Made by a program: the position numbers and the translations under genes. From assembly GCA_003281085.1 (NCBI GenBank), contig QCCZ01000002.1:11028-75027 (forward strand): a stretch of 64,000 nt of DNA, given 5' to 3'. How positions within the stretch are numbered: position 1 is the first letter of the stretch; every line of letters begins with the position of its first letter. The notes beneath the pieces are model-generated. The model worked only from the letters and a program-made list of their open reading frames with translations, searched no databases and had not been told where the DNA came from. Source of the DNA: OCS155 cluster bacterium AG-349-E07 (GTDB lineage Bacteria; Actinomycetota; Acidimicrobiia; Actinomarinales; Actinomarinaceae). Positions 422 through 56,727 of the stretch are shown here, one piece after another.

Positions 422-437
422 ATAAACCTCCATTCAT

Positions 438-461: not shown

Positions 462-524
462 TATACATAGTTAAATTGTCTCTAAGTAATTGTAACAAAC
501 ATTGGAGTTTATTTAAAGCCTTTT

Positions 525-1955: not shown

Positions 1956-1973
1956 GACTATATATTAAAGGTT

Positions 1974-12995: not shown

Positions 12996-13631
12996 TTATA
13001 TGTCCTTTAAATTATTCTTTTTCCACTCTTCGATATCTTTATGGTTACCAGACAGCAAAACTTCAGGTACAGATAGATTTTTAAATGTTTCGGGCCTTGT
13101 ATATACAGGAAAGTCATATTTGTTGTCATTAAATGTTTCATATTTTAATGAATCTGGATTTCCTAATACGCCCGGAATCCTTCTTATTAAAGCTTCGAGC
13201 AAATACATCGCTGGAACTTCACCTCCAGAAATGACGGTGTGTCCAATAGAAACTTCATAATCTGAATGGATATCCAAGATTCTTTGATCAAAACCTTCAT
13301 ATCTGCCTGCAATTAGATTTATAGTCTTAAATGATAATAATTCAATTAATAGAGTTTCATCCAACTGCTCCCCTGATGGTGTTAGAAAAACATTAATTTC
13401 TGAATTTGAAGAGTTAATCGCATTGTCTAATGGCTCAGGCATTAATACCATTCCAGGTCCCCCGCCATATGGAGCATCATCTACTTGTTTATATTCTCCA
13501 ATTCCAAATTCCCTTAAGTTTGTAGTTTGAATATTTACCAACTGATTTTTAATAGCTTGTCTCACAATGCCTATATTTTTCCACTCCTCAATTAAATTAG
13601 GGAATAGTGTAATGACATTATATGTATTCAT
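12996..13631 (-). CDS. trmD: tRNA (guanine37-N1)-methyltransferase
   Basis: 211 aa with DDAPYGGGPGMVL and GRYEGFDQR. ATGA overlap with the cofH stop. Confidence 0.9.
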   Translation of the reverse strand: MNTYNVITLFPNLIEEWKNIGIVRQAIKNQLVNIQTTNLREFGIGEYKQVDDAPYGGGPGMVLMPEPLDNAINSSNSEINVFLTPSGEQLDETLLIELLSFKTINLIAGRYEGFDQRILDIHSDYEVSIGHTVISGGEVPAMYLLEALIRRIPGVLGNPDSLKYETFNDNKYDFPVYTRPETFKNLSVPEVLLSGNHKDIEEWKKNNLKDI

Positions 13632-15463: not shown

Positions 15464-16574
15464 GTGAGTCTTTTGGGTAACCATCTGTATCAATAATATT
15501 ATTAACTTTTTCAAAAATTTCGTCATTTAACCATTCTTTTTTTATAAATTCTGGATATATTGGGAGTCTTTTTTTAAGTACTTGACCAGTTACTGAAGTA
15601 TCTTTTTTTAATTTATCAATATTTGGCCAAAGGTGATCTGGGTTTACCCAATCTATAGTCAATGGTGAAATTCCACCAAGATCATTTATCCCACTTTTTA
15701 GAAACAAATTTATGTCTGGCGACAAATTAGGTGGAACTTGAATTGAAATATGAGAAGGAGAATATATTCTAGTGGTAGCAATTATTCTTAAAAATAAATC
15801 ATTTGTAATTTCAGAATTATTCTTCATAATAGTATTTTTTTTAGCTCTAAAATTTTGAAGGATAATCTCTTGAATAGCCATATTATTTTGTATTAATAAA
15901 ATGAGGTTTGTTATATCATCTACCACTTCATCTTTAGTAGAAGTAAGTCCTAAAAGAAGCCCTGTAGTTACTGGGTACTTTGCTTTTAGAGCATTTTCTA
16001 GAGATTCCATTCTAAGATCGATAAATTTTGTTTGAGTTTTGTAATGAGCTTGTCCCTTATCATATATATTTTTTGAAAATGTTTCAATCATTAAGCCGCC
16101 GGATGGTGAATATTTTTTTAACTCTTTTATTTCTTCAAAACTCATCAATCCGGGATTTGCATGTGGAAATAATTTAAACGTATCATTTACTTTTTTCATT
16201 GAACTGATCAAGTAATCATGAGTTGAAGAAAATCCAAGTTGTTCGAGTTGAGTCAACGCAAAGTCCCATTTTAATTCTGGCTTATCCCCTAATGTAAATA
16301 AAGCCTCATAACATCCTGCTTCATCACCTGCACCTGCAATACTTAAAACTTCTTCTTCGTTTAAATATGTTCCACCTTCATTTGGTGATTTAACAAAAGT
16401 GCAATATCCACAACTATCTCTACACATTGTTGTAAGTGGTATGAATACTTTTGGGCTGTAAGTTATTGTATTTCCAAAATAATTTATTTTTCTATCGAAT
16501 GCTTTAGAAAGCAAATCTTCAGTTGGTTCAGGTCCAAAAATTGAATCGTGAATATTTCTTCTTAATTCTCTCAT
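15456..16574 (-). CDS. cofG: FO synthase subunit 1 (CofG-like radical SAM)
   Basis: 372 aa with the CofG-type cluster motif IPLTTMCRDSCGYCTF. Confidence 0.82.
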   Translation of the reverse strand: MRELRRNIHDSIFGPEPTEDLLSKAFDRKINYFGNTITYSPKVFIPLTTMCRDSCGYCTFVKSPNEGGTYLNEEEVLSIAGAGDEAGCYEALFTLGDKPELKWDFALTQLEQLGFSSTHDYLISSMKKVNDTFKLFPHANPGLMSFEEIKELKKYSPSGGLMIETFSKNIYDKGQAHYKTQTKFIDLRMESLENALKAKYPVTTGLLLGLTSTKDEVVDDITNLILLIQNNMAIQEIILQNFRAKKNTIMKNNSEITNDLFLRIIATTRIYSPSHISIQVPPNLSPDINLFLKSGINDLGGISPLTIDWVNPDHLWPNIDKLKKDTSVTGQVLKKRLPIYPEFIKKEWLNDEIFEKVNNIIDTDGYPKDSHE

Positions 16575-28387: not shown

Positions 28388-29323
28388 TTAAAAAACAGTT
28401 ATCGTGACTGCCTTAGTTTTTTGAGTATTTAAACTATAAAGATTGCTTAAATATTGAAAAGGTTTTTCATTAACCATTCCTATTTCGTTTAAGTATTTAG
28501 TTGCAGCTAAATCTACTCCCCTTTTACTTCCATCAATACATTTAAACAAATATGATTCATCGTTATTTGTAACAAATAGAACACCTTCTGCACCAGATTT
28601 AGCTAAAACTGTTTTGCTTGAATTGAGAATGATATTTGTATCTGTTCGATTTTCACCGCCAATAAGTAATGGGTTTGTATAGTAAGAATTAAACATATCA
28701 GACCAATTATTAGAGTATTCTGTAGTTTTTATCTTATTAACCGCTTTTAAAAAACTATCAGTTCGTAAATGTATTGCTGGAAGACCACATCCGTCTGTGC
28801 CAAAACCAATATCATTATCAGTGAAAATAAATTGAAAGAACTCTTTAACTATCGATTGTGTTTTACTTTTAAAAGTATGATAAATTTTGTTATCCTCGTT
28901 AAGAATTTTTGAAAATAAAAGCATAGCAAGGTGCTTTCCTGAGCAATTATGGTGTAATTTTGTATATTCTTTATTATCTCGTAGTAATTTATCAGCGGTA
29001 GGTTCATGAAAAGGTCTTTGTTTTCCACAAACTAATCTTTCAAGTTCTAAATCATATTTTTTTGCAATTGTTTTAATTAATTTTGTATGAATTTCTTGAC
29101 CAGAATGAGAAGATGAAAATATAGCTATTTCTTCACTTGTAAATAATATATTTTGATTTTGGGCTTCATAAAGAAGAGGGATAAGTTGAAAAGGTTTAAC
29201 AGCTGATCTTGGAAAAAAATAATCATATTCTTTTTGATCATTTTTATATACGTTAACAACGTGAGTCGATTCAAGAGAACCGTCTCTATTTAGTTGAACT
29301 TTTAATTTTTTAATTTTTGACAT
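28388..29323 (-). CDS. Asparaginase II-family protein (putative)
   Basis: 311 aa with SSHSGQEIH and HNCSGKHLAML, resembling the Rhizobium-type asparaginase II family. Confidence 0.55.
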   Translation of the reverse strand: MSKIKKLKVQLNRDGSLESTHVVNVYKNDQKEYDYFFPRSAVKPFQLIPLLYEAQNQNILFTSEEIAIFSSSHSGQEIHTKLIKTIAKKYDLELERLVCGKQRPFHEPTADKLLRDNKEYTKLHHNCSGKHLAMLLFSKILNEDNKIYHTFKSKTQSIVKEFFQFIFTDNDIGFGTDGCGLPAIHLRTDSFLKAVNKIKTTEYSNNWSDMFNSYYTNPLLIGGENRTDTNIILNSSKTVLAKSGAEGVLFVTNNDESYLFKCIDGSKRGVDLAATKYLNEIGMVNEKPFQYLSNLYSLNTQKTKAVTITVF

Positions 29324-30105
29324 TTCCTACAAAAATATGTAGCTCTTTGGTTAATGTATATTTTATCAATTATATGTTCACAATTAAAACAATTTGTTTT
29401 GCTATATATTTTTAAAAAATTCTGATTTGAACCAAATTCACCATAAGGCAAAAAATAAGTCATATCACTTAAAGTTGTTCCATTGTTTTTAATTGCTAAA
29501 CGCATAATTTTTTTGGTGTTATTAAAAAATTCTTGCCAATTATTGCTACTTAAAGCATTTACTTTTGTTTCAGGGTGAATTCTTGAGGCAAACAATATTT
29601 CGTTTGCATAAATGTTACCTATTCCACTCATGTATTTTTGGTTAAGTATAAAATCTTTTATCAATGATTTTGATTTCTTACTTTTATCAATAATTATTCT
29701 TGATTGTTTTGTACTAATATCCAACACATCTGGACCAATTTTATTCAAATAATCAATTTTTAATTCCACTTTTATGATATTAATAAATCCAAATCTTCTA
29801 ATATCATCAAAATTTACTGTATCTTTGTCAAAATAAAAACGGGCTCTTGTATGTTTATTTTTTTTATCGTTTACTTGGATTCTTCCGCTCATTCCTAAAT
29901 GAAAAATGATCGAATAATGTTCAAAATCAAAAATTAAAAGTTTACCTTTTCTTGATATTCCTGATAAAGATTCTTTAATTGTTGGTTTTTTAGTATTATA
30001 TCTATTTGTTCTATGATCATAGATTTTATAATTCTCTAGTTTCTGACCAACAATATTTGAAGATAACGAACGTTTAATTGATTCTACTTCAGGCAGTTCA
30101 GGCAT
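29302..30105 (-). CDS. mutM: Formamidopyrimidine-DNA glycosylase
   Basis: 267 aa with the N-terminal MPELPEVE and a C-terminal zinc finger (CFNCEH...CRKCQ). Confidence 0.85.
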   Translation of the reverse strand: MPELPEVESIKRSLSSNIVGQKLENYKIYDHRTNRYNTKKPTIKESLSGISRKGKLLIFDFEHYSIIFHLGMSGRIQVNDKKNKHTRARFYFDKDTVNFDDIRRFGFINIIKVELKIDYLNKIGPDVLDISTKQSRIIIDKSKKSKSLIKDFILNQKYMSGIGNIYANEILFASRIHPETKVNALSSNNWQEFFNNTKKIMRLAIKNNGTTLSDMTYFLPYGEFGSNQNFLKIYSKTNCFNCEHIIDKIYINQRATYFCRKCQKLKN

Positions 30106-33409: not shown

Positions 33410-33942
33410 AATTTCCTCAATATAAGAATATTACTTTGACCATAGTTTTTTTCTTTATGAATTTTATAATTTTTTAAAGTATCAAGTTCTTTTGATGCTG
33501 TATGGCGGTGTATTACAACAAATCCATCAGTATTTAATATATTATAAATTTTCATGACCTCGTTTTTAACAACATCCGTTTCTATTTTGAAAGGAGGGTC
33601 ATAAAAAACAATATCGTATGTACTCAAGGATGTTTGTAAAAACTTATCTACACTAGATTTAGTGATTTTATAATTATTTTCAAATTCGTTTAAATTTTGC
33701 TTCAAAATAGTTATGCAATCATCTGAATTTTCAATAAAAGTTACAAAATTCGCACCTCTACTCAAAGATTCAATTCCTAAGCTTCCTGAACCGGCATAAA
33801 GATCTAAAATATCTTTTTTTTCAATGTTGAATTGTAGAGAATTAAATATTGATTCCCTTACTTTGCTCATCATAGGTCTGGTTAATGGATCATTAATTGT
33901 TCGAATTAATTTTGACTTATATCTTCCAGCAAGAACTCTCAT
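33406..33942 (-). CDS. rsmD: 16S rRNA (guanine966-N2)-methyltransferase RsmD
   Basis: 178 aa with LDLYAGSGSLGIE and the FYDPPF motif. Confidence 0.85.
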   Translation of the reverse strand: MRVLAGRYKSKLIRTINDPLTRPMMSKVRESIFNSLQFNIEKKDILDLYAGSGSLGIESLSRGANFVTFIENSDDCITILKQNLNEFENNYKITKSSVDKFLQTSLSTYDIVFYDPPFKIETDVVKNEVMKIYNILNTDGFVVIHRHTASKELDTLKNYKIHKEKNYGQSNILILRKL

Positions 33943-36065
33943 GTAGTTCCACTTGCTTTAAAATAATTTGGAAATAGAATTTGCGCTTCCTCGAACAGTA
34001 GTTTTTTAATATCTTCAGATTCAATTTTATCAAATATATTTTTTGATTCTAAAAGCAGTTCATAATCGAATCTCAAATCGGCTATCTTTAAATCAGATTG
34101 CCCAGATTGGCTTGTACCAGTAACTTTACCTTCACCTCTAATCTCTAAATCAATTTCTGATAATTTAAAGCCATCTTTTATATTTACAATCGCTTCTAAT
34201 CTTCTCTTTCCATCTTCACTGATTGTATTTAATGTTTTTTTCTTAGAAACATGAAAAATACATTCTGATTGTTTGTCACTTCTCCCAACCCTACCTCTTA
34301 ATTGGTGTAGTTGGTTTAGTCCAAATCTTTCAGCGCTTTCAATAATCATTAATGTTGCATTCGGTATATCTATTCCAACTTCAATAACGACTGTAGAAAC
34401 TAGGATATCTACTTTACCATTCTTCATATCTTGCATTATTTGGTCTTTTTCATCAAAAGACATCTTTCCATGAAGAATCGAAACATTGTAATCTTTAAAC
34501 TTTTCTTTATACTCAATGAAAACATTTTCAGCAGCTTGAATATCCACCAATTCACTTTCTTCAATAAATGGGCAGACTACAAATATTTGTGATTTTTTCT
34601 GGAGATGAAACTCACAAATATCATAAATAGTTTCGTTATCTTTTTTTGATCCTTCTATTAGATGTGAAGTGATGTCTTTTCTCCCAGGTGGTAATTCATT
34701 AATCGAAGAAATTTCTAAATCTCCATAAATTGACAATGCTGTAGTTCTTGGAATTGGTGTAGCAGTCATAACTAACTGGTCAGGAATATCTCCAGTTTCA
34801 TTTATTAGCTTTTTTCTTTGCTCTACACCAAATCTCTGTTGTTCATCAATAATAGCAAATCCAAGATTTGAAAATTTAATACTTTCCTGAATTAGTGCGT
34901 GAGTACCAATATATAGGGCTGGTTTACCATTATTTAAGTTGTCTAAAATGTTTTCTCTATCTTTAATTGATGAAGTAAGTAGGTATATGTCACATTGATC
35001 TTTATTCATAAATTGATTAATTGAGGCAAAGTGTTGCTCAGCTAAAACCTCTGTTGGAGCCATTAATGCAACCTGATAGCCTGATTTAATTGCAGCATAA
35101 GATGCGATAGTAGCCACGACTGTTTTTCCTGAACCAACATCGCCTTGCAGCAGTCTTTTCATAGGATAATTTTTTCTAAAATCCTCTAAAATTTCGTTTA
35201 CAGCTTTTAATTGTGATTGTGTTAACTGAAATGGGAGTTGGTCTATAAATTCATCTATGTCTGAATTAGAAAATGTGTAAACTAATCCTTTATTTTCATT
35301 CTTATATTTTGACTTTAGATTTTCAAATATTGACCTTAAATAAATAAACTCATCTAAAACTAATCTCCGTCTTGCATTTTTATAATCAACTTCGTTTTTT
35401 GGAAAATGAATCTTTTTTACACTTTGTAATCTATTTTCAAGAGAATGTTCTTTTATGATTTCAGAAGGTAAGACATCAAATAATCCAGGTGTAAAATCAT
35501 CTTTTGTCGACTCTAATATAGCGATAATTTCCTTTAACCCTTTTCTAATGCTTGCACTTGTCATGCCTTCTACTTTTTTGTAAATAGGAATAAAAGAACC
35601 CGTCTCATTTAATTCTTCAATATCAGTAAATTTTTCAATAGCTGGATTTTTAAAATCAACACTTCCAGTTTTTTTAACTTCAGGCTTTCCTGATACAGCA
35701 ACTACTTCACCTTCTTTAAATCTAGACTCTATATATTGAGGACCAAACCATTTGGCTTTTAAACTTCCTGATTCATCAGAAATACTAAGTGTTGCAATTC
35801 TTAATCTTGTCTTAGTAGTAAAAACGGATACTTTATCAATAGTTCCAAAGATAGTTACTTCATTATTTTCATCATTTTTATCGATTTCAGATATTAACTT
35901 AACCTTAGATCTGTCAATATGTGTTCTTGGAAAATAGCGAATTAAATCAACAACAGTTTTTAATTTACTTTTTTTTAAACTTGCAAACTTTTTTTCGCCT
36001 ATTCCCCTAACAAAACTAAGTTCTATTTCATCTAAATATTTAAAGCTTCTTTCAACCACAATCAA
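33939..36065 (-). CDS. recG: ATP-dependent DNA helicase RecG
   Basis: 708 aa with an N-terminal wedge/OB region, GDVGSGKT, IIDEQQRFG and QLRGRVGR. Confidence 0.9.
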   Translation of the reverse strand: MIVVERSFKYLDEIELSFVRGIGEKKFASLKKSKLKTVVDLIRYFPRTHIDRSKVKLISEIDKNDENNEVTIFGTIDKVSVFTTKTRLRIATLSISDESGSLKAKWFGPQYIESRFKEGEVVAVSGKPEVKKTGSVDFKNPAIEKFTDIEELNETGSFIPIYKKVEGMTSASIRKGLKEIIAILESTKDDFTPGLFDVLPSEIIKEHSLENRLQSVKKIHFPKNEVDYKNARRRLVLDEFIYLRSIFENLKSKYKNENKGLVYTFSNSDIDEFIDQLPFQLTQSQLKAVNEILEDFRKNYPMKRLLQGDVGSGKTVVATIASYAAIKSGYQVALMAPTEVLAEQHFASINQFMNKDQCDIYLLTSSIKDRENILDNLNNGKPALYIGTHALIQESIKFSNLGFAIIDEQQRFGVEQRKKLINETGDIPDQLVMTATPIPRTTALSIYGDLEISSINELPPGRKDITSHLIEGSKKDNETIYDICEFHLQKKSQIFVVCPFIEESELVDIQAAENVFIEYKEKFKDYNVSILHGKMSFDEKDQIMQDMKNGKVDILVSTVVIEVGIDIPNATLMIIESAERFGLNQLHQLRGRVGRSDKQSECIFHVSKKKTLNTISEDGKRRLEAIVNIKDGFKLSEIDLEIRGEGKVTGTSQSGQSDLKIADLRFDYELLLESKNIFDKIESEDIKKLLFEEAQILFPNYFKASGTT

Positions 36066-36149: not shown

Positions 36150-36386
36150 ATGGCAAATAGATGTCAAGTTACAGGAAGAGAACCACGCTCTGGGAAGAAC
36201 GTTACCTTTTCTCATAAACGAAATCCTCGATGGTTTAAACCAAATATTCAAACAAAAAAATATTGGCTTGCTAGCGAAAATAGATGGGTAAAACTTAAAG
36301 TTAGTACAAGAGGAAACAAAATTATTGATAAGCGTGGAATAGAGTCAGTTGTTAAGGAAATTAGACAAAGAGGCGAAAAAGTTTAA
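36150..36386 (+). CDS. rpmB: 50S ribosomal protein L28
   Basis: MANRCQVTGREPRSGKNVTFSHKRNPRWFKPN. The ATG at 36150 has GGAGG 6 nt upstream; the ORF-track start at 36129 is rejected. Confidence 0.9.
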   Translation: MANRCQVTGREPRSGKNVTFSHKRNPRWFKPNIQTKKYWLASENRWVKLKVSTRGNKIIDKRGIESVVKEIRQRGEKV

Positions 36387-36601
36387 TGGCACAAGGTGTT
36401 GTTAAATCGTATGACCCAAATACCGGAAACGGGATTATTTTATTAGATACCGACAAATCAGAAGTTTTTATTATTCCAGGTTCACTTAAAGGATCTATTT
36501 TTAGAACATTAAGACAGGGCCAGAGAATAAATTTCGAAATTGAAGCACAAGATGACGTAAATGTTGTCAAAAATATCCGAATTGGACAAGATAAGTACTA
36601 A
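36386..36601 (+). CDS. Divergent cold-shock-domain (OB-fold) protein
   Basis: 71 aa: MAQGVVKSYDPNTGNGIILLDTDKSEVFIIPGSL...GQRINFEIE follows the CspA pattern, but the RNP1/RNP2 aromatic residues are replaced by aliphatic ones. 1-nt overlap (TAATG) with rpmB. Confidence 0.55.
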   Translation: MAQGVVKSYDPNTGNGIILLDTDKSEVFIIPGSLKGSIFRTLRQGQRINFEIEAQDDVNVVKNIRIGQDKY

Positions 36602-36609: not shown

Positions 36610-37809
36610 ATGTCCTTAATTAATTTAGACTTATCCAACGAAGAAATAATTAACAAATATTTTAATGATTTATGCTGCGATAAGTACATAGAACCTTCAA
36701 TAAAAGGGGGTCAATCCAATGCAGATAATGCTTTAAACACACTAGATATTAAAAATTATGCAAAAACAAGAAATAATGTATTTCCAATTGAAAAAAGAGG
36801 TTCGTCTTATTTATCTGCTTATATACGACATGGTTTAATTTCGTTACCCGAAGTATGGAATTTTGTAGAAAAATTTGAATACCAAGATAAAACAAAATTC
36901 AGAGATGAGCTGTTATGGCAAGAGTTTTCGAGGCATTTATACGCAATTGTAGGTAAAAATTCAAATGATTATTTAAATTATGCAATCAAATCAAATAAAA
37001 ATATTGAAAAAAACTATCAAAACATGAATTGTATTAATTCAATTAAAACAGAGCTTGAAAGTACTGGATACATGGTTAATCAAACAAGAATGTGGTTTGC
37101 ATCCCATTTTTCATTGCGAACTGGAGATAACTGGAGAAATTATGAAGATTACATGTTTAAACATCTAGTTGATGGATCAAGATTTGCAAATAGATTAGGT
37201 TGGCATTGGGTTATGGGCTCTCAAACTGGAAAAGTGTATGGTTTTTCAAAATTCCAAGTAGACAAAAGAGCAAAAAGTTTTTGTGACAACTGTGAGGTCA
37301 AATACAATTGTCCTATACAAAATTGGCCTGAAGAAATCAACATAACTAAAAAAACAATAGATGTTGATTTGAATCTTGAAACTAATTTTGGACCTGAGAG
37401 TATAAAAAATAATATTGATTCAAAACCTGAATTTGTTTGGATGACTGCTGAGTCACTAGGAGACAATGATCCAGCATTGAATTATTATTCAAATCTTCCA
37501 GCTGTTTTTATTTTTGACAAACCTTTATTAAATTATTTACAACTTTCAACTAAAAGAATTATATTTTTATTGGATTGTTTAAGAGAATTATCTAACAAAA
37601 GAAGTACTCAAGTGTACTTAGATGATCCAATTGAATATCTTAAAAATAAAAATTTTGCATCCACATTTGCAGCAGTCCCAAAATACAAAAAAATAACTCG
37701 AGTAAATATTCCCACTACCGAATTCCCCTCTGTTAGATTAGTAAAGCCTATAAATTTTTATCCATCGAGTTATAGTTCTTGGAAAAAAAGAATAGAATTG
37801 AATACATGA
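36610..37809 (+). CDS. Photolyase/cryptochrome-family protein with apparently permuted domain order and a Cys cluster
   Basis: FAD-domain motifs lie at residues ~33-207 (SSYLSAYIRHGLISLPEVW, ELLWQEFSRHLY, TGYMVNQTRMWFASHF, NWRNYEDYMFKHLVDGSRFANRLGWHWVMGSQTG). Motifs of the N-terminal alpha/beta domain lie at residues ~274-330 (EFVWMTAESLGDNDPAL...AVFIFDKPLL...RIIFLLDCLRELS). Cys residues: C141 and C225-x2-C228-x5-C234. Confidence 0.6.
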   Translation: MSLINLDLSNEEIINKYFNDLCCDKYIEPSIKGGQSNADNALNTLDIKNYAKTRNNVFPIEKRGSSYLSAYIRHGLISLPEVWNFVEKFEYQDKTKFRDELLWQEFSRHLYAIVGKNSNDYLNYAIKSNKNIEKNYQNMNCINSIKTELESTGYMVNQTRMWFASHFSLRTGDNWRNYEDYMFKHLVDGSRFANRLGWHWVMGSQTGKVYGFSKFQVDKRAKSFCDNCEVKYNCPIQNWPEEINITKKTIDVDLNLETNFGPESIKNNIDSKPEFVWMTAESLGDNDPALNYYSNLPAVFIFDKPLLNYLQLSTKRIIFLLDCLRELSNKRSTQVYLDDPIEYLKNKNFASTFAAVPKYKKITRVNIPTTEFPSVRLVKPINFYPSSYSSWKKRIELNT

Positions 37810-38228
37810 AAAGATATTTATTATTTTTATTTCTTTTCTTTCATAACTATATTTATATTTACTCAAACGGAAGAATCGGTAAATTTTTAAATAATCGTCC
37901 TTGTTTAATACTTCATACAACTGGGGCAAAAACAAATCTGGAAAGAAAAAATGTTTTAGTTTTCCTAAAAGAGGATAATGAAATTTGCATTGTAGCCTCA
38001 AAAGGTGGGAGCGAAACTAATCCAGGCTGGTATCACAATTTAAAAAAATATCCTGAGTGTGAAGTTCAAATTGGAAGAGAAAAATTTAAAGCAGTATCCA
38101 GAGAAATATTTGAAGATGAAAGAAATGATTGGTGGAACAAAATGGATTATATGAATAAGGGTGGGTACTCTGCTTATCAAAGAAGAACGCAAAGAAAAAT
38201 TCCTGTATTAGTACTTGATATTTCTTAG
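37806..38228 (+). CDS. DDN-family deazaflavin (F420H2)-dependent reductase-fold protein with hydrophobic N-terminal anchor
   Basis: LILHTTGAKTNLERKNVLVFLKEDNEICIVASKGGSETNPGWYHNLKKYPECEVQI...RKIPVLVL closely follows the Ddn / F420H2 quinone reductase pattern. ATGA overlap with the upstream stop. The N-terminus is MKRYLLFLFLFFHNYIYIY. Confidence 0.75.
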   Translation: MKRYLLFLFLFFHNYIYIYSNGRIGKFLNNRPCLILHTTGAKTNLERKNVLVFLKEDNEICIVASKGGSETNPGWYHNLKKYPECEVQIGREKFKAVSREIFEDERNDWWNKMDYMNKGGYSAYQRRTQRKIPVLVLDIS

Positions 38229-45199: not shown

Positions 45200-46183
45200 A
45201 TGATAAAAAATTTATCTCCTTCAAGAGCATCTCAATTTAAAACCTGTCCCAAGCAATTTAAATTCGCAAATGTTGATAAATTAAAAGAACCCACAAATGA
45301 AGTTCAAGCAAAAGGAACTACTGTACATCAAGCACTAGAAGATTTGTTTGATTTGCCAAAAGAAGAGAGAAGTATTGAAAAACTACATAATTTATTTCGA
45401 GATGCTTGGACAAAAGTTAGAGGGAATGATGAACATCATAATTTATTTTCGAATGTAGAAGAAGAAAGAGAATGGGGTGTTGATGGTCTTAAATTGCTTA
45501 ATAATTATATGGAAATAGAAGACCCTACAAGTTTTGAACCTTTAGAGCGCGAGCGTTGGGTTAGAGGCTCAATCAATGACTTAAATTTAAGAGGTATCTT
45601 AGACAGGATGGACAGAAATCAAAATGGTGATTTAATCATTGTGGACTACAAGAGTGGAAAAGCTCCAATGGCTAAATATAAAGAACCTAGATTTTTTGCT
45701 TTAAAATTATATGCGCTTCTGATCAAAGAAGAGCTCGGTGAGATGCCAGTTGAGCTAAAGTTAATTTACCTGAAAAATTCAACTATTCACACATTGAAAA
45801 TAACCGAAGAAGATTTATCAAATGCAAAAAATGAAATTTTAGAAATTTGGGCAAATATAAAAAAAGCATATGAAGAGAATGAGTTTCCTGCAATAAAAAA
45901 TACATTGTGTGACTGGTGTTACTACAAACCAATCTGTCCAGAATTTAATGAAAATGCTCCAAATACCGAAAATCTCAGAATTATAAACGAATCAATAACT
46001 GAATTAGAGGAAGAAATTGAAGTTTTAGATATGTTTAAAGATGATGATAAAATTCCAGTAGATAGTCCGATTGGTAACTCTAACAGAAAAGATATTGAAT
46101 CAAAAATTTCTGAATTAGAAAATCAAAAAAACGAAATTCAAACTGAAATCGAAAAGCTTTTAAGGGAACAGTCCTCTAGTTAA
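45200..46183 (+). CDS. PD-(D/E)XK nuclease, RecB/AddB/Cas4-like with 4-Cys cluster and acidic coiled-coil tail
   Basis: 327 aa with SPSRASQFKTCPKQF (first Cys), GILDRMDRNQNGDLIIVDYKSGK (nuclease core) and CDWCYYKPICP (C-x2-C-x5-C). The C-terminal ~70 aa is a Glu/Ile/Asn-rich coil. Confidence 0.7.
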   Translation: MIKNLSPSRASQFKTCPKQFKFANVDKLKEPTNEVQAKGTTVHQALEDLFDLPKEERSIEKLHNLFRDAWTKVRGNDEHHNLFSNVEEEREWGVDGLKLLNNYMEIEDPTSFEPLERERWVRGSINDLNLRGILDRMDRNQNGDLIIVDYKSGKAPMAKYKEPRFFALKLYALLIKEELGEMPVELKLIYLKNSTIHTLKITEEDLSNAKNEILEIWANIKKAYEENEFPAIKNTLCDWCYYKPICPEFNENAPNTENLRIINESITELEEEIEVLDMFKDDDKIPVDSPIGNSNRKDIESKISELENQKNEIQTEIEKLLREQSSS

Positions 46184-47425
46184 TTTTGCAGCAGCTACTC
46201 TTTTAATTCCTTTTATCAATGCAGCTGTACGCAAATCACAGTTTTGTTTTTGCGAAATAGTCCAAACTTCCTCAAATGAAGTAAGCATTACATCGATAAG
46301 CTTTTCATGTAATTCAGTTTCTTTCCATAAATAATTTTGAGTATTTTGTACCCATTCAAAATAACTAGCAGTAATTCCTCCTGCATTAGCTAATATATCT
46401 GGAATAATAATTACTCCATTTTCTCTTAAAATCTTGTCAGCATTTAAAGTTGTTGGCGAATTTGCACCTTCAATAAGCACATTTGTTTTAATTTTTTCTG
46501 CGTTACTAGAAGTAATTACACCTCCGACAGCTGCAGGTATTAGAACATCACATTCTATTTCTAGAATTTCACCTTCATAGTCTTCGCCACCTTCAAAGCC
46601 TTTTACAGAGGGGGTTTTTGCAATATGTTTAAAAAGTTCCGGAATATTTAATCCATCTTTATTAAATACTGCACCACCTAGATCGTTAACTGCAATTACT
46701 TTAGCTCCCCGTTCATAAGAATCTAAAGCAGCATATCTTCCGACATTGCCAAATCCTTGAATTACAACGCGTGAATCCCCATATTTTTTACCTAGTTTTT
46801 TCATTGCAGCTTCCCCTACAGCCACAGCTCCTCTTCCTGTTGATTCTCTTCTTGTTATAGAACCTCCCAGTGAAACTGGTTTTCCTGTGACTATTCCAGG
46901 TTGAGGAGAGCCAACAAAGTTACTATACGTATCCATAATCCATGCCATTGTTTGCTCATCTGTGCCGAGATCTGGAGCAGGTATGTCTTTATCGACCCCT
47001 ATAATCGGAAGTAATTCTGCTGTATACCTTCTAGTAACTCTTTGCTTTTCAGCTCTTGTTAAAGGATTAGGATCAATGGCTACTCCACCCTTAGCTCCAC
47101 CATATGGTAATCCAACAATTGCAGATTTCCAAGACATCAATATAGCCAAAGCTGTAACTTCACCTAGATTTACATCTGGAGCATATCTTATACCACCTTT
47201 AGTAGGTCCCATCGACAAAACATGCTGGACTCGATATCCTACAACTGTTTCTACTTCGTCATATTCATCCCTTCTAAAAGGAAAAGTGACAACTAAAGAC
47301 CTTTGGGGTAATTTAAGCCTTTCTCTTATATTGGAATCAAGATTTATTAAATTAGAGACTTCGTCATACTGTTTGATGACTTCTTTATACATATGTGAGT
47401 CAAAGAGATTATTTTCAACTATCAC
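46160..47425 (-). CDS. gdhA: Glutamate dehydrogenase
   Basis: 421 aa with GLPYGGAKGG and a Rossmann region (VVIQGFGNVG). GTG start at 47425, or an ATG 11 codons downstream. Confidence 0.9.
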   Translation of the reverse strand: MIVENNLFDSHMYKEVIKQYDEVSNLINLDSNIRERLKLPQRSLVVTFPFRRDEYDEVETVVGYRVQHVLSMGPTKGGIRYAPDVNLGEVTALAILMSWKSAIVGLPYGGAKGGVAIDPNPLTRAEKQRVTRRYTAELLPIIGVDKDIPAPDLGTDEQTMAWIMDTYSNFVGSPQPGIVTGKPVSLGGSITRRESTGRGAVAVGEAAMKKLGKKYGDSRVVIQGFGNVGRYAALDSYERGAKVIAVNDLGGAVFNKDGLNIPELFKHIAKTPSVKGFEGGEDYEGEILEIECDVLIPAAVGGVITSSNAEKIKTNVLIEGANSPTTLNADKILRENGVIIIPDILANAGGITASYFEWVQNTQNYLWKETELHEKLIDVMLTSFEEVWTISQKQNCDLRTAALIKGIKRVAAAKLTRGLFP

Positions 47426-47635: not shown

Positions 47636-48157
47636 ATGAAAGATTTGATCTGGGATATTGCCAAAAGTGGAGAGGAAGCTCTAGAAAACACAGAACTACA
47701 AACAATTGAAGAACCTAAAGAATTATTTGTAGCAAGAGGAGTTTCTATAGAAGCAAAAGACAGTACTTATAAAATCAATAAATTTGTAGATAATAAAATT
47801 GCACTCGATGTTCAGGAAAAAGGAGCGATAAAAATATCTGATACTGTCTTTAATTACTCTAAAAGTTACAAATCAAAAACTCTAGATTTAAAAAAATTAA
47901 TTGATTGGGCTACCAACAAGAAACTTTCAGATGATGATATTGAAAACTTAGTAGCGCTTTGTGGAAATACTTTTGTACCAAAATTAAGGGGCCTAGATGC
48001 AGTTGCAGAAAAAAAAGGAATGGATAAACAGCTAGCAAGAGATACTTTTATTGAAAAAATTTGGGATGAGGAACCTAAATTACAAGTCATTAAAACAAGC
48101 AACGATACCGCTCCAGTATGGGCGAAAGATTTGAAAGAAATGGAGAGAAGAAAATGA
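47636..48157 (+). CDS. Hypothetical protein (173 aa), partner of the SSAP gene
   Basis: Strong AGGAG (47626..47630) 5 nt upstream of the ATG. Its TGA overlaps the ATG of the next gene (ATGA). I recognise no family motif. Confidence 0.6.
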   Translation: MKDLIWDIAKSGEEALENTELQTIEEPKELFVARGVSIEAKDSTYKINKFVDNKIALDVQEKGAIKISDTVFNYSKSYKSKTLDLKKLIDWATNKKLSDDDIENLVALCGNTFVPKLRGLDAVAEKKGMDKQLARDTFIEKIWDEEPKLQVIKTSNDTAPVWAKDLKEMERRK

Positions 48158-48582
48158 AACAATTGTATGAACTATCAAGAAAATTTCCAAAAGATTGGAT
48201 AAAAAAAGCACCTAAGGGCAAGTTTGGAAATTACGTTCCACATCCTGTAATTACACAACGTCTATTAGAAGTTTGTGGACCTTTTAATTGGGAAGTTGTT
48301 GAATTGATCAGACAGGAAACTACAGGAGCAGTAGTAGGTTGCTTTGGAAAGTTGACCGTTGAAATTGATGGCAAATTAGTCACTGTAACATCTATCGGTG
48401 ACGTAGAGCACGATCAAAAAAATGATGGTAGTAATGCAAAGCATGCAGAGTCAGATTCTTTCAAAAGGTGTGCGATGAAACTCGGGCTTGGATTACATTT
48501 ATGGGCTGGAGAAGAATATTATCTTGATAAACAACTTGATAAAAAAGAAATAGGAAAAAAAACTAAGCTTCAATCTGCTTGA
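48154..48582 (+). CDS. Rad52/Sak-like single-strand annealing protein (SSAP)
   Basis: 142 aa from ATG 48154 (GGAG 8 nt upstream). FGNYVPHPVITQRLLEVCGPFNWEVVEL...GKLTVEIDGKLVTVTSIGD...NAKHAESDSFKRCAMKLGLGLHLWAGEEYYL matches the Rad52-superfamily annealase pattern. Confidence 0.65.
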   Translation: MKQLYELSRKFPKDWIKKAPKGKFGNYVPHPVITQRLLEVCGPFNWEVVELIRQETTGAVVGCFGKLTVEIDGKLVTVTSIGDVEHDQKNDGSNAKHAESDSFKRCAMKLGLGLHLWAGEEYYLDKQLDKKEIGKKTKLQSA

Positions 48583-49051: not shown

Positions 49052-49462
49052 ATGGGATTAGACAATAAAACAATTCAAATGGCATCTGGCCCAAATTATG
49101 CAGCGTTGACAACTTTATTTAAAGATGGCGTTCCACAAACACATGTGATGTGGGTTGATACAGATGGTGAAAATATTTTAATCAATACAGAGATACATAG
49201 ATTCAAATACAAAAATATTTTAAAAGATCCCAGAGTCACGGTTACGATTTGGAAGCACGACAATCCATTTAAATTTGTTGAAATAAGAGGTGAAGTTATC
49301 GCTGAAATCACTGGTCAAGAAGCAAGAGACAATATTGATAAATTATCTGAAAAATATTGGGAGAAACCTTATCCATTCCCAATACAAAGCGAAAGAATTG
49401 TACTTGTTATAAAATCAAACAAGGAAGTGATGTTTAATCTTAAAGACGAAGATTTTGAATAA
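49052..49462 (+). CDS. PPOX-class (pyridoxamine 5'-phosphate oxidase fold) probable F420-dependent enzyme
   Basis: 136 aa with the pattern NYAALTTLFKDGVPQTHVMWVDTDGENILINT...VEIRGEV typical of the small split-barrel flavin/deazaflavin family. Confidence 0.65.
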   Translation: MGLDNKTIQMASGPNYAALTTLFKDGVPQTHVMWVDTDGENILINTEIHRFKYKNILKDPRVTVTIWKHDNPFKFVEIRGEVIAEITGQEARDNIDKLSEKYWEKPYPFPIQSERIVLVIKSNKEVMFNLKDEDFE

Positions 49463-51584: not shown

Positions 51585-52601
51585 ATGGAATTTTTTAATG
51601 AAAAAATAAGAAACTACATAGCTTCCAATCTTGATTTGGATAACCAATTTAAATTTGAAAAATTTAAAGTTGGTAGATCAAACATTACTTTTAAAATTTT
51701 TGACGATAGAAATAGTTATGTTCTAAGAAGACCTCCATTTGGTGATAAATTAGAGTCTGCGCATAACATGCAACGTGAATACAGAATTATTAATGAACTG
51801 AGTAAAAATAATATAAAAGTTCCGAAACCAATTCTTTTATATACCGATAGAACACTTTCTGATGATGATTTTTACATTATGGAATATATTGAAGGTGCAA
51901 CTATTGCAGATAATGTAATAGCTGAAAATTATTCGAAAAATGATAAAAAGGAAATTACGAATTCATTTATTACAACACTTGCTGAATTGCATAATTTCGA
52001 TGTAAAAAATTCTAAATTAAATGATTTAGGAAAACATGAAGACTATGTCTTAAGGCAGTTAAACAGATGGACAAAACAATTTAATGCACAGAAAGTAAGA
52101 GATATTGCCGATTTAGATATTGCTACGAAATTATTATTCGATACTATCCCCACACAACAAAAAGTAAGTATTGTTCATGGAGATTACAGATTAGATAATG
52201 TAAGGGTAAATAATAACTTGGTTGCAGCAATTGTTGATTGGGAACTCTGTACATTAGGAGACCCACTAGCTGATCTAGGAACTGTGATTGCTTCTTGGTC
52301 AAATAAGAATGAAACTGATACTCCATTTATATATTCACCCTCTTTAAGTGATGGATTCCCAAACAGGCAAGAAATAATTAATCTATATGAATCTAAATCA
52401 GACCTCGATTTAAACAATATTGAATTCTATGTAAGACTATCTTTTTGGAAACATGCAATGATAATGGAAGGAGTCTACGTTAGGTATTCTCTTGGTTATT
52501 ATGGTAATGTTGATAAGAAAGATGTAGAGGCATTTGGTAAAAGCACATTAAGTTTTGCAAAAAAAGCATCTAATAAGAATCTACTTAAGGAGATATTTTG
52601 A
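51585..52601 (+). CDS. APH-fold phosphotransferase (ACAD10/11 kinase-domain-like)
   Basis: HGDYRLDN catalytic loop and IVDWELCTLGDP metal-binding region. The ATG at 51585 is preferred over TTG 51579. It is divergent from the ACAD gene. Confidence 0.75.
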   Translation: MEFFNEKIRNYIASNLDLDNQFKFEKFKVGRSNITFKIFDDRNSYVLRRPPFGDKLESAHNMQREYRIINELSKNNIKVPKPILLYTDRTLSDDDFYIMEYIEGATIADNVIAENYSKNDKKEITNSFITTLAELHNFDVKNSKLNDLGKHEDYVLRQLNRWTKQFNAQKVRDIADLDIATKLLFDTIPTQQKVSIVHGDYRLDNVRVNNNLVAAIVDWELCTLGDPLADLGTVIASWSNKNETDTPFIYSPSLSDGFPNRQEIINLYESKSDLDLNNIEFYVRLSFWKHAMIMEGVYVRYSLGYYGNVDKKDVEAFGKSTLSFAKKASNKNLLKEIF

Positions 52602-53059
52602 AAGTTATTCCAGCAAATGAGCTAGAAAATCATATTGGTGAAGAGGTAGGTGTTTCTGATTGGTTCGAGGTAACTCAAGAAAGAATTAATCAATTTGCTG
52701 AAGCAACAAATGACCACCAATTTATTCATGTAGATCCTGAAATGGCAAAGGCAACGCCGTGGGGTTCCACAATTGCACATGGTTTTTTAACTTTAAGCTT
52801 GCTTACCTATCTTCAAGCTGATATTGGATATATGCCAGAAGGGCTTCAGATGGCTATAAATTACGGTGCAGACAAAGTCAGATTTATGGAAGCTGTTCCT
52901 GTAAATAGTAAAATCAGAGGTCGTTTTGTTCTTGCAGAAGTTAATTATAAAAAAAATGGAAGATGGCTTACGAAAACAACTTGTACAATCGAAATTGAGG
53001 GTAAAGAAAAACCTGCAGCGATTGTCGAAGCATTAACTTTATACGTTGTAAGTGAATAA
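52598..53059 (+). CDS. MaoC-like (R)-specific enoyl-CoA hydratase
   Basis: 153 aa with HVDPEMAKATPWGSTIAHG. TTG start 5 nt after AAGGAG, overlapping the upstream TGA. Confidence 0.8.
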   Translation: MKVIPANELENHIGEEVGVSDWFEVTQERINQFAEATNDHQFIHVDPEMAKATPWGSTIAHGFLTLSLLTYLQADIGYMPEGLQMAINYGADKVRFMEAVPVNSKIRGRFVLAEVNYKKNGRWLTKTTCTIEIEGKEKPAAIVEALTLYVVSE

Positions 53060-53074
53060 TAAAAGGAGATATTT

Positions 53075-54253
53075 ATGAGAGAATCAGTAATAGTATCTGC
53101 AGCTAGAACACCTATAGGTAAGGCTTACAGAGGGGCTTTTAATAACACAGCTGCCCCAACCCTAGCCTCTTACTCTATAAAAGAAGCTGTCGACAGAGCT
53201 GGAATAGATCCAAAAGAAGTTGAAGATGTTGTTTTAGGATGTGCACAGCAACAAGGTTCACAGGCTATAAATATAGGAAGATTAGCTGGTATTGCAGCAG
53301 GGCTTCCTGATAATGTTCCAGGCATGACAATAGACAGGCAATGTTCATCGGGAATGATGGCAATTGCGACTGCATCAAAACAGGTTGTTACAGACAATAT
53401 GGACGTTGTTGTTGCTGGAGGAGTTGAATCTATTTCACTCGTACAAACTGCAGATTTTAGGGTAGATATTGATCCTAATGTTACTGAGCATGCAAAACAT
53501 GCATACATGCCAATGATTGAGACTGCTGATCACGTTGCTGAAAAATATAATGTAACAAGAGAAAGTCAAGACGAGTACTCTCTTCAAAGTCAGCAAAGGA
53601 CAGCAGCTGCACAAGAAGCAGATCTTTACAAAGACGAAATCATTTCAACCACGACTACTAAGTTAGTTAAAGACAAAGAATCCGGGGAAATTTCTGAACA
53701 AGAAGTCACTTTAGAAAAAGACGAAGGTAACAGACCAGAAACAAATATAGAAGGTCTATCATCTTTAGTCCCAGTGTATGGAGAGGGTAAGTTCATAACT
53801 GCTGGAAATGCATCTCAGTTATCTGATGGATCCGCATCCGTAGTGGTTATGGAATCAAAGGTTGCAGAAAACAAAGGCCTAACACCACTTGGCTATTACC
53901 GAGGAATGGCTGTTGCAGGTTTAGCTCCAGAAGAAATGGGAATTGGGCCAATTTATGCTGTTCCTAAATTGCTTGACAAATATAACTTAAGTATTGATGA
54001 CATTGGCTTATGGGAGCTTAATGAAGCATTCGCAGTGCAAGCTTTATATTGTAGAGATTATCTAGGTATTGATAATGAAATTTACAATGTTAATGGTGGC
54101 TCAATATCTATAGGACATCCATACGGAATGACTGGTGCAAGAATGACAATGCATGCTCTTATGGAAGGTAAACGAAGAGGTGCAAAGTATGTTGTTGTCA
54201 CAATGTGTGTTGGTGGTGGAATGGGTGCTGCTGGATTATTTGAGGTCATATAA
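53075..54253 (+). CDS. Acetyl-CoA acetyltransferase / 3-ketoacyl-CoA thiolase
   Basis: 392 aa with DRQCSSGM (active Cys), [17 protein letters not shown] and MCVGGGMG. Confidence 0.9.
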
Positions 54254-54304
54254 ATTAACAAGTATTTAAAAGACTTGACATAAATTCTAAAAGTATAATT
54301 GAAT

Positions 54305-55756
54305 ATGAACAAAATTACTGACAAAAACAGTTATTTAGATTCAATTAAAAATAGAAATTTAAAAATTTATCTTATGGGTGAACTTATTAAGGAACCTTTA
54401 GATCATCCAATTATTAGACCAAGCGTTGAAGCAATGGCGGAAACATATGAACTAGCAGTCAGTGAACCGGAATTAGCATCAGCAACATCTCCATATACTG
54501 GTGAAAGTATAAATAGATTTTTACACATCGCTGAAAGTAATGAAGATCTATTTTTACAAAATAAAATGCAAAGAAAGCTTGGTCAACTAACTGGTACCTG
54601 CTTTCAAAGATGTGTTGGTATGGATGCGTTTAATGCACTTCATTCTGTAACTTTTGAAATTGATGAAAAACACAATACTGAATATCACAAGAATTTTATT
54701 AATTTTCTAACTGAAATGCATAAATACAATTTGGTAATTGGTGGTGCAATGACAGACGTTAAAGGTGATAGATCAAAATTACCACACGAACAAGAAGATG
54801 AAGATGTGTATTTAAGAATTGTAAAAAGGACACAAGATGGTGTTTATGTTAAGGGAGCAAAAGCACATCAGACTGGGTGTATTAATTCACACTGGATGGT
54901 TGTAATGCCTACCTTGAGACTGTCTGATAAAGACAAAGACTATGCAATAGTTGGTGCAATCCCAGTTGATGCAGAAGGAATAACGTATATTTATGGTAGA
55001 CAGTCATGCGATACAAGAAGCATGGAGCCTGGTGAATATGATGTGGGAAATAAATATTTTGCCGGTCAAGAAGCAATGGTTATTTTTGATAATGTATTCA
55101 TACCAAATGACTACATTTTTATGAATGGTGAATATGAATATGCATCTATGTTAGTTGAGAGATTTACAACATATCATAGAAGATCTTATGTATGTAAATC
55201 GGGCGTTGGCGATGTACTCATAGGAGCTGCAGCAACTATTGCAGAGTACAACGGTGTTGAAGAAGCATCACATATTAAAGATAAACTTGTTGAAATGAAT
55301 AAGCTCAATGAAACAATTTATGCTACTGGCATCGCTTCATCCCTACAGGGTTCAAGCACTAAGTCAGGAAACTTCATTAATGATGATCTTTTGGCAAATG
55401 TGTGTAAACAACATGTAACAAAAGAAACATACGAGATTGGTCGAATTGCACAAGATCTTGCAGGTGGTCTAGTGGGGTCAATGCCTTCAGGAATTGATTT
55501 TAATGAGGGGACAATGTCTGAAGATTTAAAAAAATATTTAAAAGGTAAAAAAGATATTAACTCAGAAGATCGAGTAAAAATTCTAAGATTGATTGAAAAT
55601 ATGACACTAGGTAGAAACGCCGTTGCTTATTTAACTGAATCTTTACATGGTGCAGGCTCCCCACAAGCACACAGAGTCCAGATTAGAAGGAAAGTAAATA
55701 TTGAAGAAAAAAAGGACTTTGCCAAAAAATTATCGGGAATTATTGAGAGAGAATAA
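54305..55756 (+). CDS. 4-Hydroxybutyryl-CoA dehydratase/vinylacetyl-CoA isomerase-like (AbfD/HpaB superfamily)
   Basis: C-x3-C (TGTCFQRCVG) lies near residue 100 and an H-x5-C (YHRRSYVC) near residue 295, as expected for the AbfD [4Fe-4S] ligands and absent from HpaB monooxygenases. The ATG at 54305 is preferred over TTG 54299. Confidence 0.7.
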   Translation: MNKITDKNSYLDSIKNRNLKIYLMGELIKEPLDHPIIRPSVEAMAETYELAVSEPELASATSPYTGESINRFLHIAESNEDLFLQNKMQRKLGQLTGTCFQRCVGMDAFNALHSVTFEIDEKHNTEYHKNFINFLTEMHKYNLVIGGAMTDVKGDRSKLPHEQEDEDVYLRIVKRTQDGVYVKGAKAHQTGCINSHWMVVMPTLRLSDKDKDYAIVGAIPVDAEGITYIYGRQSCDTRSMEPGEYDVGNKYFAGQEAMVIFDNVFIPNDYIFMNGEYEYASMLVERFTTYHRRSYVCKSGVGDVLIGAAATIAEYNGVEEASHIKDKLVEMNKLNETIYATGIASSLQGSSTKSGNFINDDLLANVCKQHVTKETYEIGRIAQDLAGGLVGSMPSGIDFNEGTMSEDLKKYLKGKKDINSEDRVKILRLIENMTLGRNAVAYLTESLHGAGSPQAHRVQIRRKVNIEEKKDFAKKLSGIIERE

Positions 55757-56727
55757 TGAAAGCAGTTGTATGTACAAAACTAGGTGAACCGAATTTACTA
55801 GAAATAAAAGAAGTTGATAAGCCAACGATTAATAAAGATGAAGTCCTAATAAAAGTTGAAGTTGCTGGGGTTAATTTTCCAGATGCACTTCTTGTTCAAG
55901 GAAAGTATCAAATTGTAATAGATCCACCATTTATTCCAGGTAATGAAGTTTGTGGAATTATTGAAGAGAAAGGTGAAAATGTAGATATTCCTGTGGGAAC
56001 AAAAGTAATTGGCATTCCTCCAATTGGAGGGTTTGCTGAATTCGTTACAATAAATAAAAATTTGGTAATTCCAGTAAATATGAACTTTGATTCTTTGTCA
56101 GGAGCAAGCTTACCAATTAATTACGGTACTTCATATTATGCTCTAAAAAGAAGAGCAAATGCTCAGAGTGGAGAAAGTCTTTTAGTCCTTGGTGCCTCTG
56201 GTGGGATTGGAACTGCAACTATTCAATTAGCAAAAGTTATGGGACTGAAAACAATCTGTGCTGTCGGTTCTGACAACAAAGAAGAATATGTAAAAAGTTT
56301 AGGTGGAGATCAAATAGTAAGATATGATCAAGTTGACTTAAAAGAAACGGTGAAAGAACTCACTGATGGCAAAGGTGTAGATATAGTTATTGATCCTGTT
56401 GGTGGTGAAGTTTCTGAACAAGCATTAAGAGCTACAGCATTCAATGGCAGACTATTAGTTATTGGCTTTGCTAATGGAGAGATACCTAAAATTTCACTTA
56501 ACTTAACACTTGTAAAAGGGGTATCAATTGTTGGCGTTTGGTGGGGTCGATGGACTAATACTTCCCCTCATGAAACAGCAGAAGATTTTAGTGAATTAAT
56601 TTCTTTTGTTGAAAGTGGAAAATTAAATATTGTTCCAAAAAATAATTACGAAATTGAAGATACTGCAGTAGCACTGGAAAACTTTCTAAATAGGAAAAAT
56701 ATTGGTAAAACTGTTATCAGCGTCTAG
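55756..56727 (+). CDS. Medium-chain (zinc-independent) NADPH:quinone oxidoreductase-like dehydrogenase
   Basis: 323 aa with MKAVVC...GVNFPD and GASGGIGTA. 1-nt overlap with the AbfD-like gene. Confidence 0.75.
   Translation: MKAVVCTKLGEPNLLEIKEVDKPTINKDEVLIKVEVAGVNFPDALLVQGKYQIVIDPPFIPGNEVCGIIEEKGENVDIPVGTKVIGIPPIGGFAEFVTINKNLVIPVNMNFDSLSGASLPINYGTSYYALKRRANAQSGESLLVLGASGGIGTATIQLAKVMGLKTICAVGSDNKEEYVKSLGGDQIVRYDQVDLKETVKELTDGKGVDIVIDPVGGEVSEQALRATAFNGRLLVIGFANGEIPKISLNLTLVKGVSIVGVWWGRWTNTSPHETAEDFSELISFVESGKLNIVPKNNYEIEDTAVALENFLNRKNIGKTVISV

Follow-up and report, generated by a model that had tools for sequence, protein, structure and literature searches.

We analyzed a 64-kb stretch of low-GC (~31%) DNA (the window) and found that a 399-residue open reading frame (ORF) in it very probably encodes an iron-sulfur (Fe-S) type photolyase of the SPL/NewPHL class in Candidatus Actinomarina, working by the light-driven mechanism described below. 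The locus is 98-99% identical to the single-cell genomes AG-447-P23 and AG-447-L16, both from uncultured Candidatus Actinomarina. In the source records the gene is unnamed, or called 'hypothetical', or carries the generic name 'deoxyribodipyrimidine photo-lyase'.

36610..37809, + strand: photolyase gene, SPL/NewPHL type (399-residue ORF)

The original prediction, made from the DNA sequence alone, had described this ORF and its ATGA overlap with the next gene, and we found both in the sequence. Seven of the eight motifs that it quoted are at the residues it gave, and the last one, INFYPSSYSSWKKRI, is at residues 381-395 rather than ~380-394. It had also stated that the protein matched no known photolyase or cryptochrome architecture. 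That statement was mistaken. The Actinomarina protein is an ordinary but divergent marine member of a published family, and its architecture is not unprecedented.

The domain order of the protein is that of the class called NewPHL in one publication and SPL in another. The NewPHL class was defined by Emmerich et al. (2020) and is characterized by an inverted topology, a photoreduction chain of two tryptophans (Trp), and repair of cyclobutane pyrimidine dimers (CPDs) in single-stranded DNA only (PMC7736829). Xu et al. (2021) named the same class SPL, for 'short photolyase-like', and reported that approximately one third of its members (subgroups C and Ac) have four conserved cysteines (PMC8476157). 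The actinobacterial member RfSPL from Rhodococcus fascians (subgroup Ac, 406 amino acids, Cys155/239/242/248) carries both flavin adenine dinucleotide (FAD) and an Fe-S cluster; on oligo(dT)16 it repaired CPDs but left (6-4) photoproducts unrepaired (PMC8476157).

The Actinomarina protein is related to RfSPL over its entire length. As a proxy for RfSPL we used L073, a 406-amino-acid protein from Rhodococcus sp. 06-235-1A that has the published RfSPL residue at each of the 20 quoted positions; the residue correspondences given below are from alignment to this proxy. The two proteins aligned end to end (43% identity over 387 columns), and 19 of the 20 residues were kept, including all 16 that belong to the active site, the FAD site, the Trp dyad, and the Cys set; R228 is replaced by K214. 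Full-length homologues of ~400 amino acids were abundant, with 3077 proteins at E<=1e-5 and identities down to 40-46%; GTDB species genomes yielded at least 586 relatives. The same architecture was found in single-cell genomes, metagenome-assembled genomes, and isolate chromosomes.

The unusual domain order is not a product of faulty assembly. The original prediction had allowed for mis-assembly of two genes and for the reversed fusion of a split gene, which here would be a canonical photolyase gene divided in two. An uninterrupted ORF of ~400 amino acids was present in more than 80 independent genomes, including the two nearly identical single-cell genomes and complete isolate chromosomes. 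Residues ~240-399 were conserved in an alignment of 42 homologues, as were the interdomain linker and the Cys motif, and AlphaFold2 (AF2), run on the full-length protein from the family alignment, gave a single compact two-domain model (pLDDT 92.7, pTM 0.91). We rejected mis-assembly because the same architecture, with its conserved linker, recurs among many independent genomes, and we regard an assembly or annotation artefact as scarcely conceivable.

The FAD-binding helical domain, which is C-terminal in canonical photolyases, comes first in this protein, as originally proposed.

36610..37326, + strand: all-α FAD-binding and catalytic domain, residues 1-239 (Pfam, NCBIfam, PDB profile search, hhalign)

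The sole Pfam family detected on the full-length protein was FAD_binding_7 (PF03441; residues 99-224, E 8e-9). The NCBIfam photolyase and DASH models matched residues 32-227 with their positions ~210-420, and the class I photolyases 1tez and 1owl in the PDB were matched with an E-value of 1.6e-9 from the single sequence and 1.9e-21 from the family profile. By hhalign against canonical photolyases, residues 25-209 aligned with residues 195-394 of E. coli Phr (Prob 99.7%). The domain is also shorter than usual, as had been noted: approximately 30 residues follow this aligned core, versus ~78 in E. coli Phr.

Two established architectures were tried and rejected. The canonical order, PF00875 followed by PF03441, does not apply, as the α/β domain is at residues ~262-399, behind the FAD domain. 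Membership in the FeS-BCP class was rejected on three grounds: there was no match to PF04244 (DPRP), the FeS-BCP structure 4dja was matched with an E-value of 0.014 versus 1.9e-21 for 1tez, and a CPD-type active site is kept.

The residues that bind FAD and the CPD are conserved. The CPD site consists of E100, W103, N157, M161, and W200, corresponding to RfSPL E112, W115, N171, M175, and W214 (E274, W277, N341, M345, and W384 in EcCPDI). The FAD site consists of R160, D188, A193, N194, and G197, corresponding to RfSPL R174, D202, A207, N208, and G211 (R344, D372, A377, N378, and G381 in EcCPDI). Across the 42 homologues nine of these residues are invariant, and A193 is present in at least 90%. 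The Trp dyad, W198 and W175, corresponds to RfSPL W212 and W189. The stretch between W103 and residue 162, in which the distal triad Trp (E. coli W306) would be expected, contains no Trp.

Four cysteines that the original prediction had proposed as Fe-S ligands are supported in this role by conservation and spacing.

37030..37032, + strand: codon of Cys141, first putative Fe-S ligand (invariant; aligns with RfSPL Cys155)
37282..37311, + strand: C225-x2-C228-x5-C234, three further putative Fe-S ligands (invariant; align with RfSPL Cys239/242/248)

The ORF has seven cysteines in total (22, 23, 141, 225, 228, 234, and 323), and of these Cys141, Cys225, Cys228, and Cys234 are invariant among the 42 homologues. 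The spacing C-x83-C-x2-C-x5-C is the same in the ORF and in the RfSPL proxy, and the cysteines align one-to-one. This pattern points to a putative Fe-S-type ligand set. The C-x2-C-x5-C segment (residues 213-236; 37246..37317) also gave weak matches to the [4Fe-4S] protein WhiB3 in the PDB, with E-values of 0.31-0.38, which are not significant alone. The same Cys spacing is used by WhiB-like proteins.

The analysis establishes homology, residue conservation, and fold; by analogy with the characterized relatives in cofactor content, substrate, and activity, the protein would act as follows. FAD would be bound by the N-terminal helical domain and reduced in the light through the two-Trp chain of W198 and W175. 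Excited FADH- would then split CPDs held by E100, W103, N157, M161, and W200, and the substrate would most likely be single-stranded DNA. Cys141, Cys225, Cys228, and Cys234 are predicted to hold a [4Fe-4S] or [3Fe-4S] cluster, like those of RfSPL and the FeS-BCPs, with a structural or redox role. The C-terminal domain, called the Z-domain, would pack on the FAD domain and seal the flavin, and would be homologous to the antenna domain found at the N-terminus of canonical photolyases.

Some of the published biochemistry weighs against this interpretation. RfSPL had low activity and very low cofactor occupancy (PMC8476157). Biochemical knowledge of the class is restricted to RfSPL, DsNewPHL, and MmNewPHL, and no Actinomarinales orthologue is among them. 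The specificity for single-stranded DNA was shown only for NewPHLs of subgroup A, which do not have the four cysteines, and oligo(dT)16 is the only substrate reported for RfSPL.

We considered whether the protein might be a cryptochrome-like sensor of light or redox state rather than a repair enzyme, with the Fe-S cluster and the C-terminal domain serving in signalling. Xu et al. suggested that SPLs might act as bacterial cryptochromes, citing low repair activity, which is indeed weak in RfSPL, and C-terminal extensions (PMC8476157). Additionally, Actinomarinales have another photolyase, encoded next to a rhodopsin gene (PMC7771536). Against this, all of the CPD-binding and catalytic residues are kept and are invariant in the 42 homologues, whereas NewCRY-type proteins lose the equivalents of E274 and N341 (PMC7736829). 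CPD photolyase activity has been measured for all three of the class members named above, and a genome of ~1 Mb is unlikely to retain a decayed enzyme. Based on this evidence, we consider a sensor very unlikely and prefer a CPD photolyase.

Structure and profile comparisons support the view that the Z-domain is a permuted α/β (antenna-type) domain of photolyases.

37393..37806, + strand: α/β Z-domain, residues 262-399, β-α-β-α-β-α-β-α-β (AF2, Foldseek, hhalign, Pfam)

The original prediction had proposed that motifs near the C-terminus resemble those that open canonical photolyases, and that the domain order is inverted. The resemblance is beyond chance. We aligned the Z-domain profile by hhalign with an alignment of 15 diverse canonical photolyases (from plasmid records plus E. 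coli) and found that residues 273-347 were placed on residues 3-91 of E. coli Phr (Prob 84%, P 7.6e-6). As controls, the reversed profile gave a P-value of 0.26, while 30 column shuffles gave P-values no lower than 0.033. The isolated Z-domain was also modelled with confidence by AF2 (pLDDT 90.9), and in a Foldseek search of the PDB with this domain the chains of the class II CPD photolyase from M. mazei ranked first (E 0.012-0.14, prob 0.87-1.00, TMq 0.45-0.55, ~141 columns), followed by PhrB (prob 0.82); other Rossmann-like proteins had a prob below 0.45. From the α/β type and the length of the match, we infer that it lies on the N-terminal domain of these photolyases.

Sequence profiles pointed in the same direction. 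PF00875 was the only recurrent Pfam match of isolated Z-domains (6 of 22, best E 0.0077). The Z-domain profile had only sub-threshold matches in the PDB, and 10 of 14 were photolyase or cryptochrome chains, all at residues ~31-115. With the full-length profile, many photolyase and cryptochrome chains in the PDB showed a second matching stretch in inverted order. A Foldseek search with the full-length model aligned the helical domain alone, the outcome expected of a permuted protein; no solved NewPHL or SPL structure was among its PDB matches.

Other results count against homology of the Z-domain to the antenna domain. The hhalign comparisons of the Z-domain with a single E. coli Phr sequence (P 0.72) and with five FeS-BCP sequences (P 0.078) were not significant. 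The FeS-BCP alignment was nonetheless at the right place (residues 4-60), and significance was reached only with the alignment of 15 canonical sequences. The isolated Z-domain of the Actinomarina protein itself had no match in Pfam, the last ~170 residues had no significant family match of their own in the Pfam, NCBIfam, or PDB searches, and with phmmer against the PDB the second stretch scored only 2.6 bits. The Foldseek E-values for the Z-domain were weak (about 1e-2).

Taken with these results, the comparisons support the family being a domain-order permutation (a circular permutation or a domain swap) of a two-domain photolyase. The two papers on the family left this point open or denied it, and the homology is in this sense a modest addition. 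SPLs were said to lack the α/β domain (Xu et al. 2021, PMC8476157). Emmerich et al. described the fold type of the Z-domain as unknown and the order of its elements as unlike that of a Rossmann fold, although a figure legend notes that its contact map resembles that of the antenna domain, and they listed 'early domain swapping' as a less favoured scenario (PMC7736829). The view preferred in both papers is that all photolyases descend from primordial single-domain ancestors (PMC7736829, PMC8476157). Homology of the Z-domain to the antenna domain favours an early domain swap and weighs against a primordial single-domain ancestor.

The gene can now be annotated as encoding an Fe-S-bearing short photolyase, and the value of this analysis is chiefly corrective.

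The gene directly downstream encodes a Ddn-family reductase, whose place beside the photolyase gene most likely reflects a lineage-specific arrangement in a compact genome rather than a functional partnership.

37806..37809, + strand: ATGA stop/start overlap of the photolyase and Ddn genes (read in the sequence)
37806..38228, + strand: gene for a Ddn-family (FDOR-A) F420H2-dependent reductase, 140 amino acids (PF04075, TIGR00026, and PDB matches)

Assignment to the DDN family, made in the original prediction, is secure: the ORF matched PF04075 (E 1.9e-36, 125.5 bits, cut-off 22) and TIGR00026 (E 4.6e-27, 94.9 bits, cut-off 46.35), and the nearest solved structures are deazaflavin-dependent nitroreductases, 7kl8 (E 1.2e-23) and 3r5l/3r5r (3r5r E 6.6e-21). 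The hydrophobic membrane anchor proposed for its N-terminus did not hold up. The maximal mean Kyte-Doolittle hydropathy over 19 residues was 0.99 here and 0.6-1.07 in 26 orthologues, compared with the usual threshold of 1.6 for a transmembrane helix. The segment is rich in aromatic residues and interrupted by a conserved H-N, and a transmembrane helix is not convincing; the protein may associate peripherally with the membrane. The segment comes ahead of the conserved core and probably corresponds to the N-terminal helix of Ddn (Rv3547).

The original prediction had viewed the two genes as a light- or redox-linked two-protein module. The Ddn reductase could maintain the FAD or the Fe-S cluster of the photolyase in the reduced state in darkness, or both proteins could draw on one pool of deazaflavin (FO/F420). 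The Ddn gene is co-transcribed with the photolyase gene, and the two are probably translationally coupled. We know of no description of adjacency to a photolyase gene for the Ddn/FDOR-A family.

Two features of the locus speak for such a module and count against our reading of the Ddn gene as a mere neighbour. The 4-nt ATGA overlap is kept in the Actinomarina locus and in all 26 related Actinomarinales loci, down to 57% protein identity, and the Ddn gene is directly 3' of the SPL gene in each of these 26 loci (57-99% protein identity). Additionally, the pair stayed intact across a rearrangement in locus L010, which leaves room for a functional link. In L010 (positions 1..3000; single-cell genome AH-558-F08, Acidimicrobiaceae), the photolyase gene is preceded by homologues of the genes at 52598..56727 of the window, inverted, in place of recG, rpmB, and the cold-shock-domain-like gene, indicating a rearrangement breakpoint directly 5' of the photolyase gene.

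The linkage was confined to one order of bacteria. In a survey made from the SPL side only, tblastn and hidden Markov model searches of 59 actinobacterial loci from outside this order found no Ddn-family ORF in the 3-4 kb around the SPL gene. The order of the downstream HAD, Ddl, and Mur genes was also kept in the three Actinomarinales loci examined; because the 26 Ddn-linked loci all come from this one bacterial order, they are not independent observations. Gene overlap itself was common. With mechanical ORF starts, the window has 51 pairs of neighbouring ORFs on the same strand, of which 29 overlapped (10 by 4 nt and 9 by 1 nt), including the unrelated coaD, rsmD, and recG. Overlaps of this kind are commonplace in this streamlined genome, and we therefore consider a functional module of the two proteins to be unsupported.

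In the loci outside Actinomarinales, other genes recurred next to the SPL gene. A DUF2256/DUF3253 gene adjoined it in approximately 16 loci, including L003, L032, L034, L040, L042, L052, L055, L056, L058, L060, L064, L065, L077, and L085, with the stop and start codons sometimes overlapping, and a gene for an FeS-BCP (6-4) photolyase adjoined it in five (L002, L035, L036, L047, and L064). These genes look like the more general partners of the family. Weighing the conserved overlap and the intact pair in L010 against the restriction to Actinomarinales and the different neighbours elsewhere, we consider a real functional link between the photolyase and the Ddn protein unlikely, and a module in which the reductase supplies electrons in the dark or shares a deazaflavin pool is equally doubtful.

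The organism has the means to make the deazaflavin FO, which bears on both the module and the question of an antenna. As the original prediction had pointed out, FO synthase genes are in the window.

13628..16574, - strand: cofH (13628..~14760) and cofG (15456..16574), FO (8-HDF) synthase (NCBIfam; context only, ~20 kb away)

The matches of cofH and cofG were to TIGR03551 (E 9e-137) and TIGR03550 (E 7e-106). The mechanical cofH ORF (13628..15526, - strand) has 632 amino acids, and the CofH models matched residues ~259-624 only; its first 259 residues (14750..15526) had no Pfam match, and this part shares 71 nt with the 3' end of cofG. Translation of cofH probably begins at an internal start; otherwise the ORF has an unexplained N-terminal extension. 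A second F420-linked gene, at 49052..49462 (+ strand), encodes a PPOX-class F420-dependent oxidoreductase (TIGR03618, E 2.9e-21, 76 bits, cut-off 79).

E. coli makes no FO. The published findings of 'no antenna' for RfSPL and the NewPHLs were obtained with protein expressed in E. coli (PMC8476157, PMC7736829), and the 8-HDF antenna of the FeS-BCP SePhrB appeared only upon co-expression of FO synthase (PMC9178010). Because the proteins reported to have no antenna came from a host without FO, there is still room for a deazaflavin antenna, and F420 synthesis by Actinomarinales has been reported (PMC7771536). We nonetheless give little credence to the combined proposal that the Z-domain is a working FO (8-HDF)-binding antenna in FO-producing hosts and that the Ddn reductase is a true partner, for example by reducing the FAD or the Fe-S cluster in the dark or by drawing on a common deazaflavin pool. 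An SPL gene that overlaps the gene for an F420H2-dependent reductase, in an abundant and streamlined marine lineage, offers a cheap system for the role of a deazaflavin as antenna or reductant.

Genes upstream of the photolyase gene appear to be incidental to it.

36151..36601, + strand: rpmB (L28; ATG at 36151) and a 71-amino-acid cold-shock-domain-like gene at 36386..36601 (Pfam, sequence; upstream, context only)

Both of these genes are absent upstream of the photolyase gene in L010, which has its breakpoint directly upstream, and we conclude that they are dispensable neighbours. Two DNA-repair genes are nearby, fpg/mutM (29302..30105, - strand) and recG (33939..36065, - strand), the latter directly upstream on the opposite strand. 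In a small genome, their nearness to the photolyase gene is probably a coincidence. A scan for promoters and terminators around the operon was uninformative, with 6 promoter-like sites versus 12.7 expected.

Elsewhere in the window, a span of ~3.4 kb contains genes for a Cas4/RecB-like nuclease (45200..46183, + strand) and a Rad52/22-family annealing protein (48118..48582, + strand), and an ORF without family assignment (47636..48157, + strand). A 421-amino-acid ORF on the - strand (46160..47425) is between the nuclease gene and the other two + strand genes. The nuclease, the unassigned ORF, and the annealing protein together resemble a small recombination module, perhaps of phage origin.

Among characterized proteins, the Actinomarina photolyase is most usefully compared with RfSPL. 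Both have ~400 amino acids, begin with the FAD helical domain, and end in a domain of ~150 amino acids, and both come from F420/FO-producing Actinomycetota. The Actinomarina protein differs in belonging to a deeply branching, low-GC marine lineage (Acidimicrobiia, Actinomarinales) that is ~40-46% identical to other actinobacterial members, and in the ATGA overlap with a Ddn-family gene, which is found in Actinomarinales and in neither Rhodococcus nor the other non-Actinomarinales loci examined.

DsNewPHL and MmNewPHL have the same catalytic domain at the N-terminus, plus a C-terminal Z-domain of ~150 amino acids that seals the FAD site; they also share the two-Trp chain, the absence of a phosphate-binding linker loop, and the CPD active site (PMC7736829). 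A 'GFF' motif is conserved in their Z-domain (PMC7736829), and the conserved Trp of the NewPHL Z-domain may correspond to W391. In contrast to the Actinomarina protein, these two are alphaproteobacterial members of subgroup A, without the four cysteines and without an Fe-S cluster.

The canonical class I, II, and III CPD photolyases (E. coli Phr, 1DNP; S. elongatus, 1TEZ; M. mazei class II, 2XRY/4CDN) share the FAD domain, the α/β domain, and the CPD residues. Compared with them, the Actinomarina protein has the reversed domain order and no long interdomain linker, a helical domain truncated after the W-x-W motif, no distal Trp of the triad, an added putative Fe-S site, and a compacted α/β domain with shorter helices. 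The FeS-BCP/(6-4) photolyases (PhrB, 4DJA; CryB) have a four-Cys site in the corresponding part of the helical domain (C350/C438/C441/C454 in PhrB), but they differ from the Actinomarina protein in their normal domain order, a DPRP-type N-terminal domain (PF04244), repair of (6-4) photoproducts, and a spacing of x12 rather than x5 before the last Cys.

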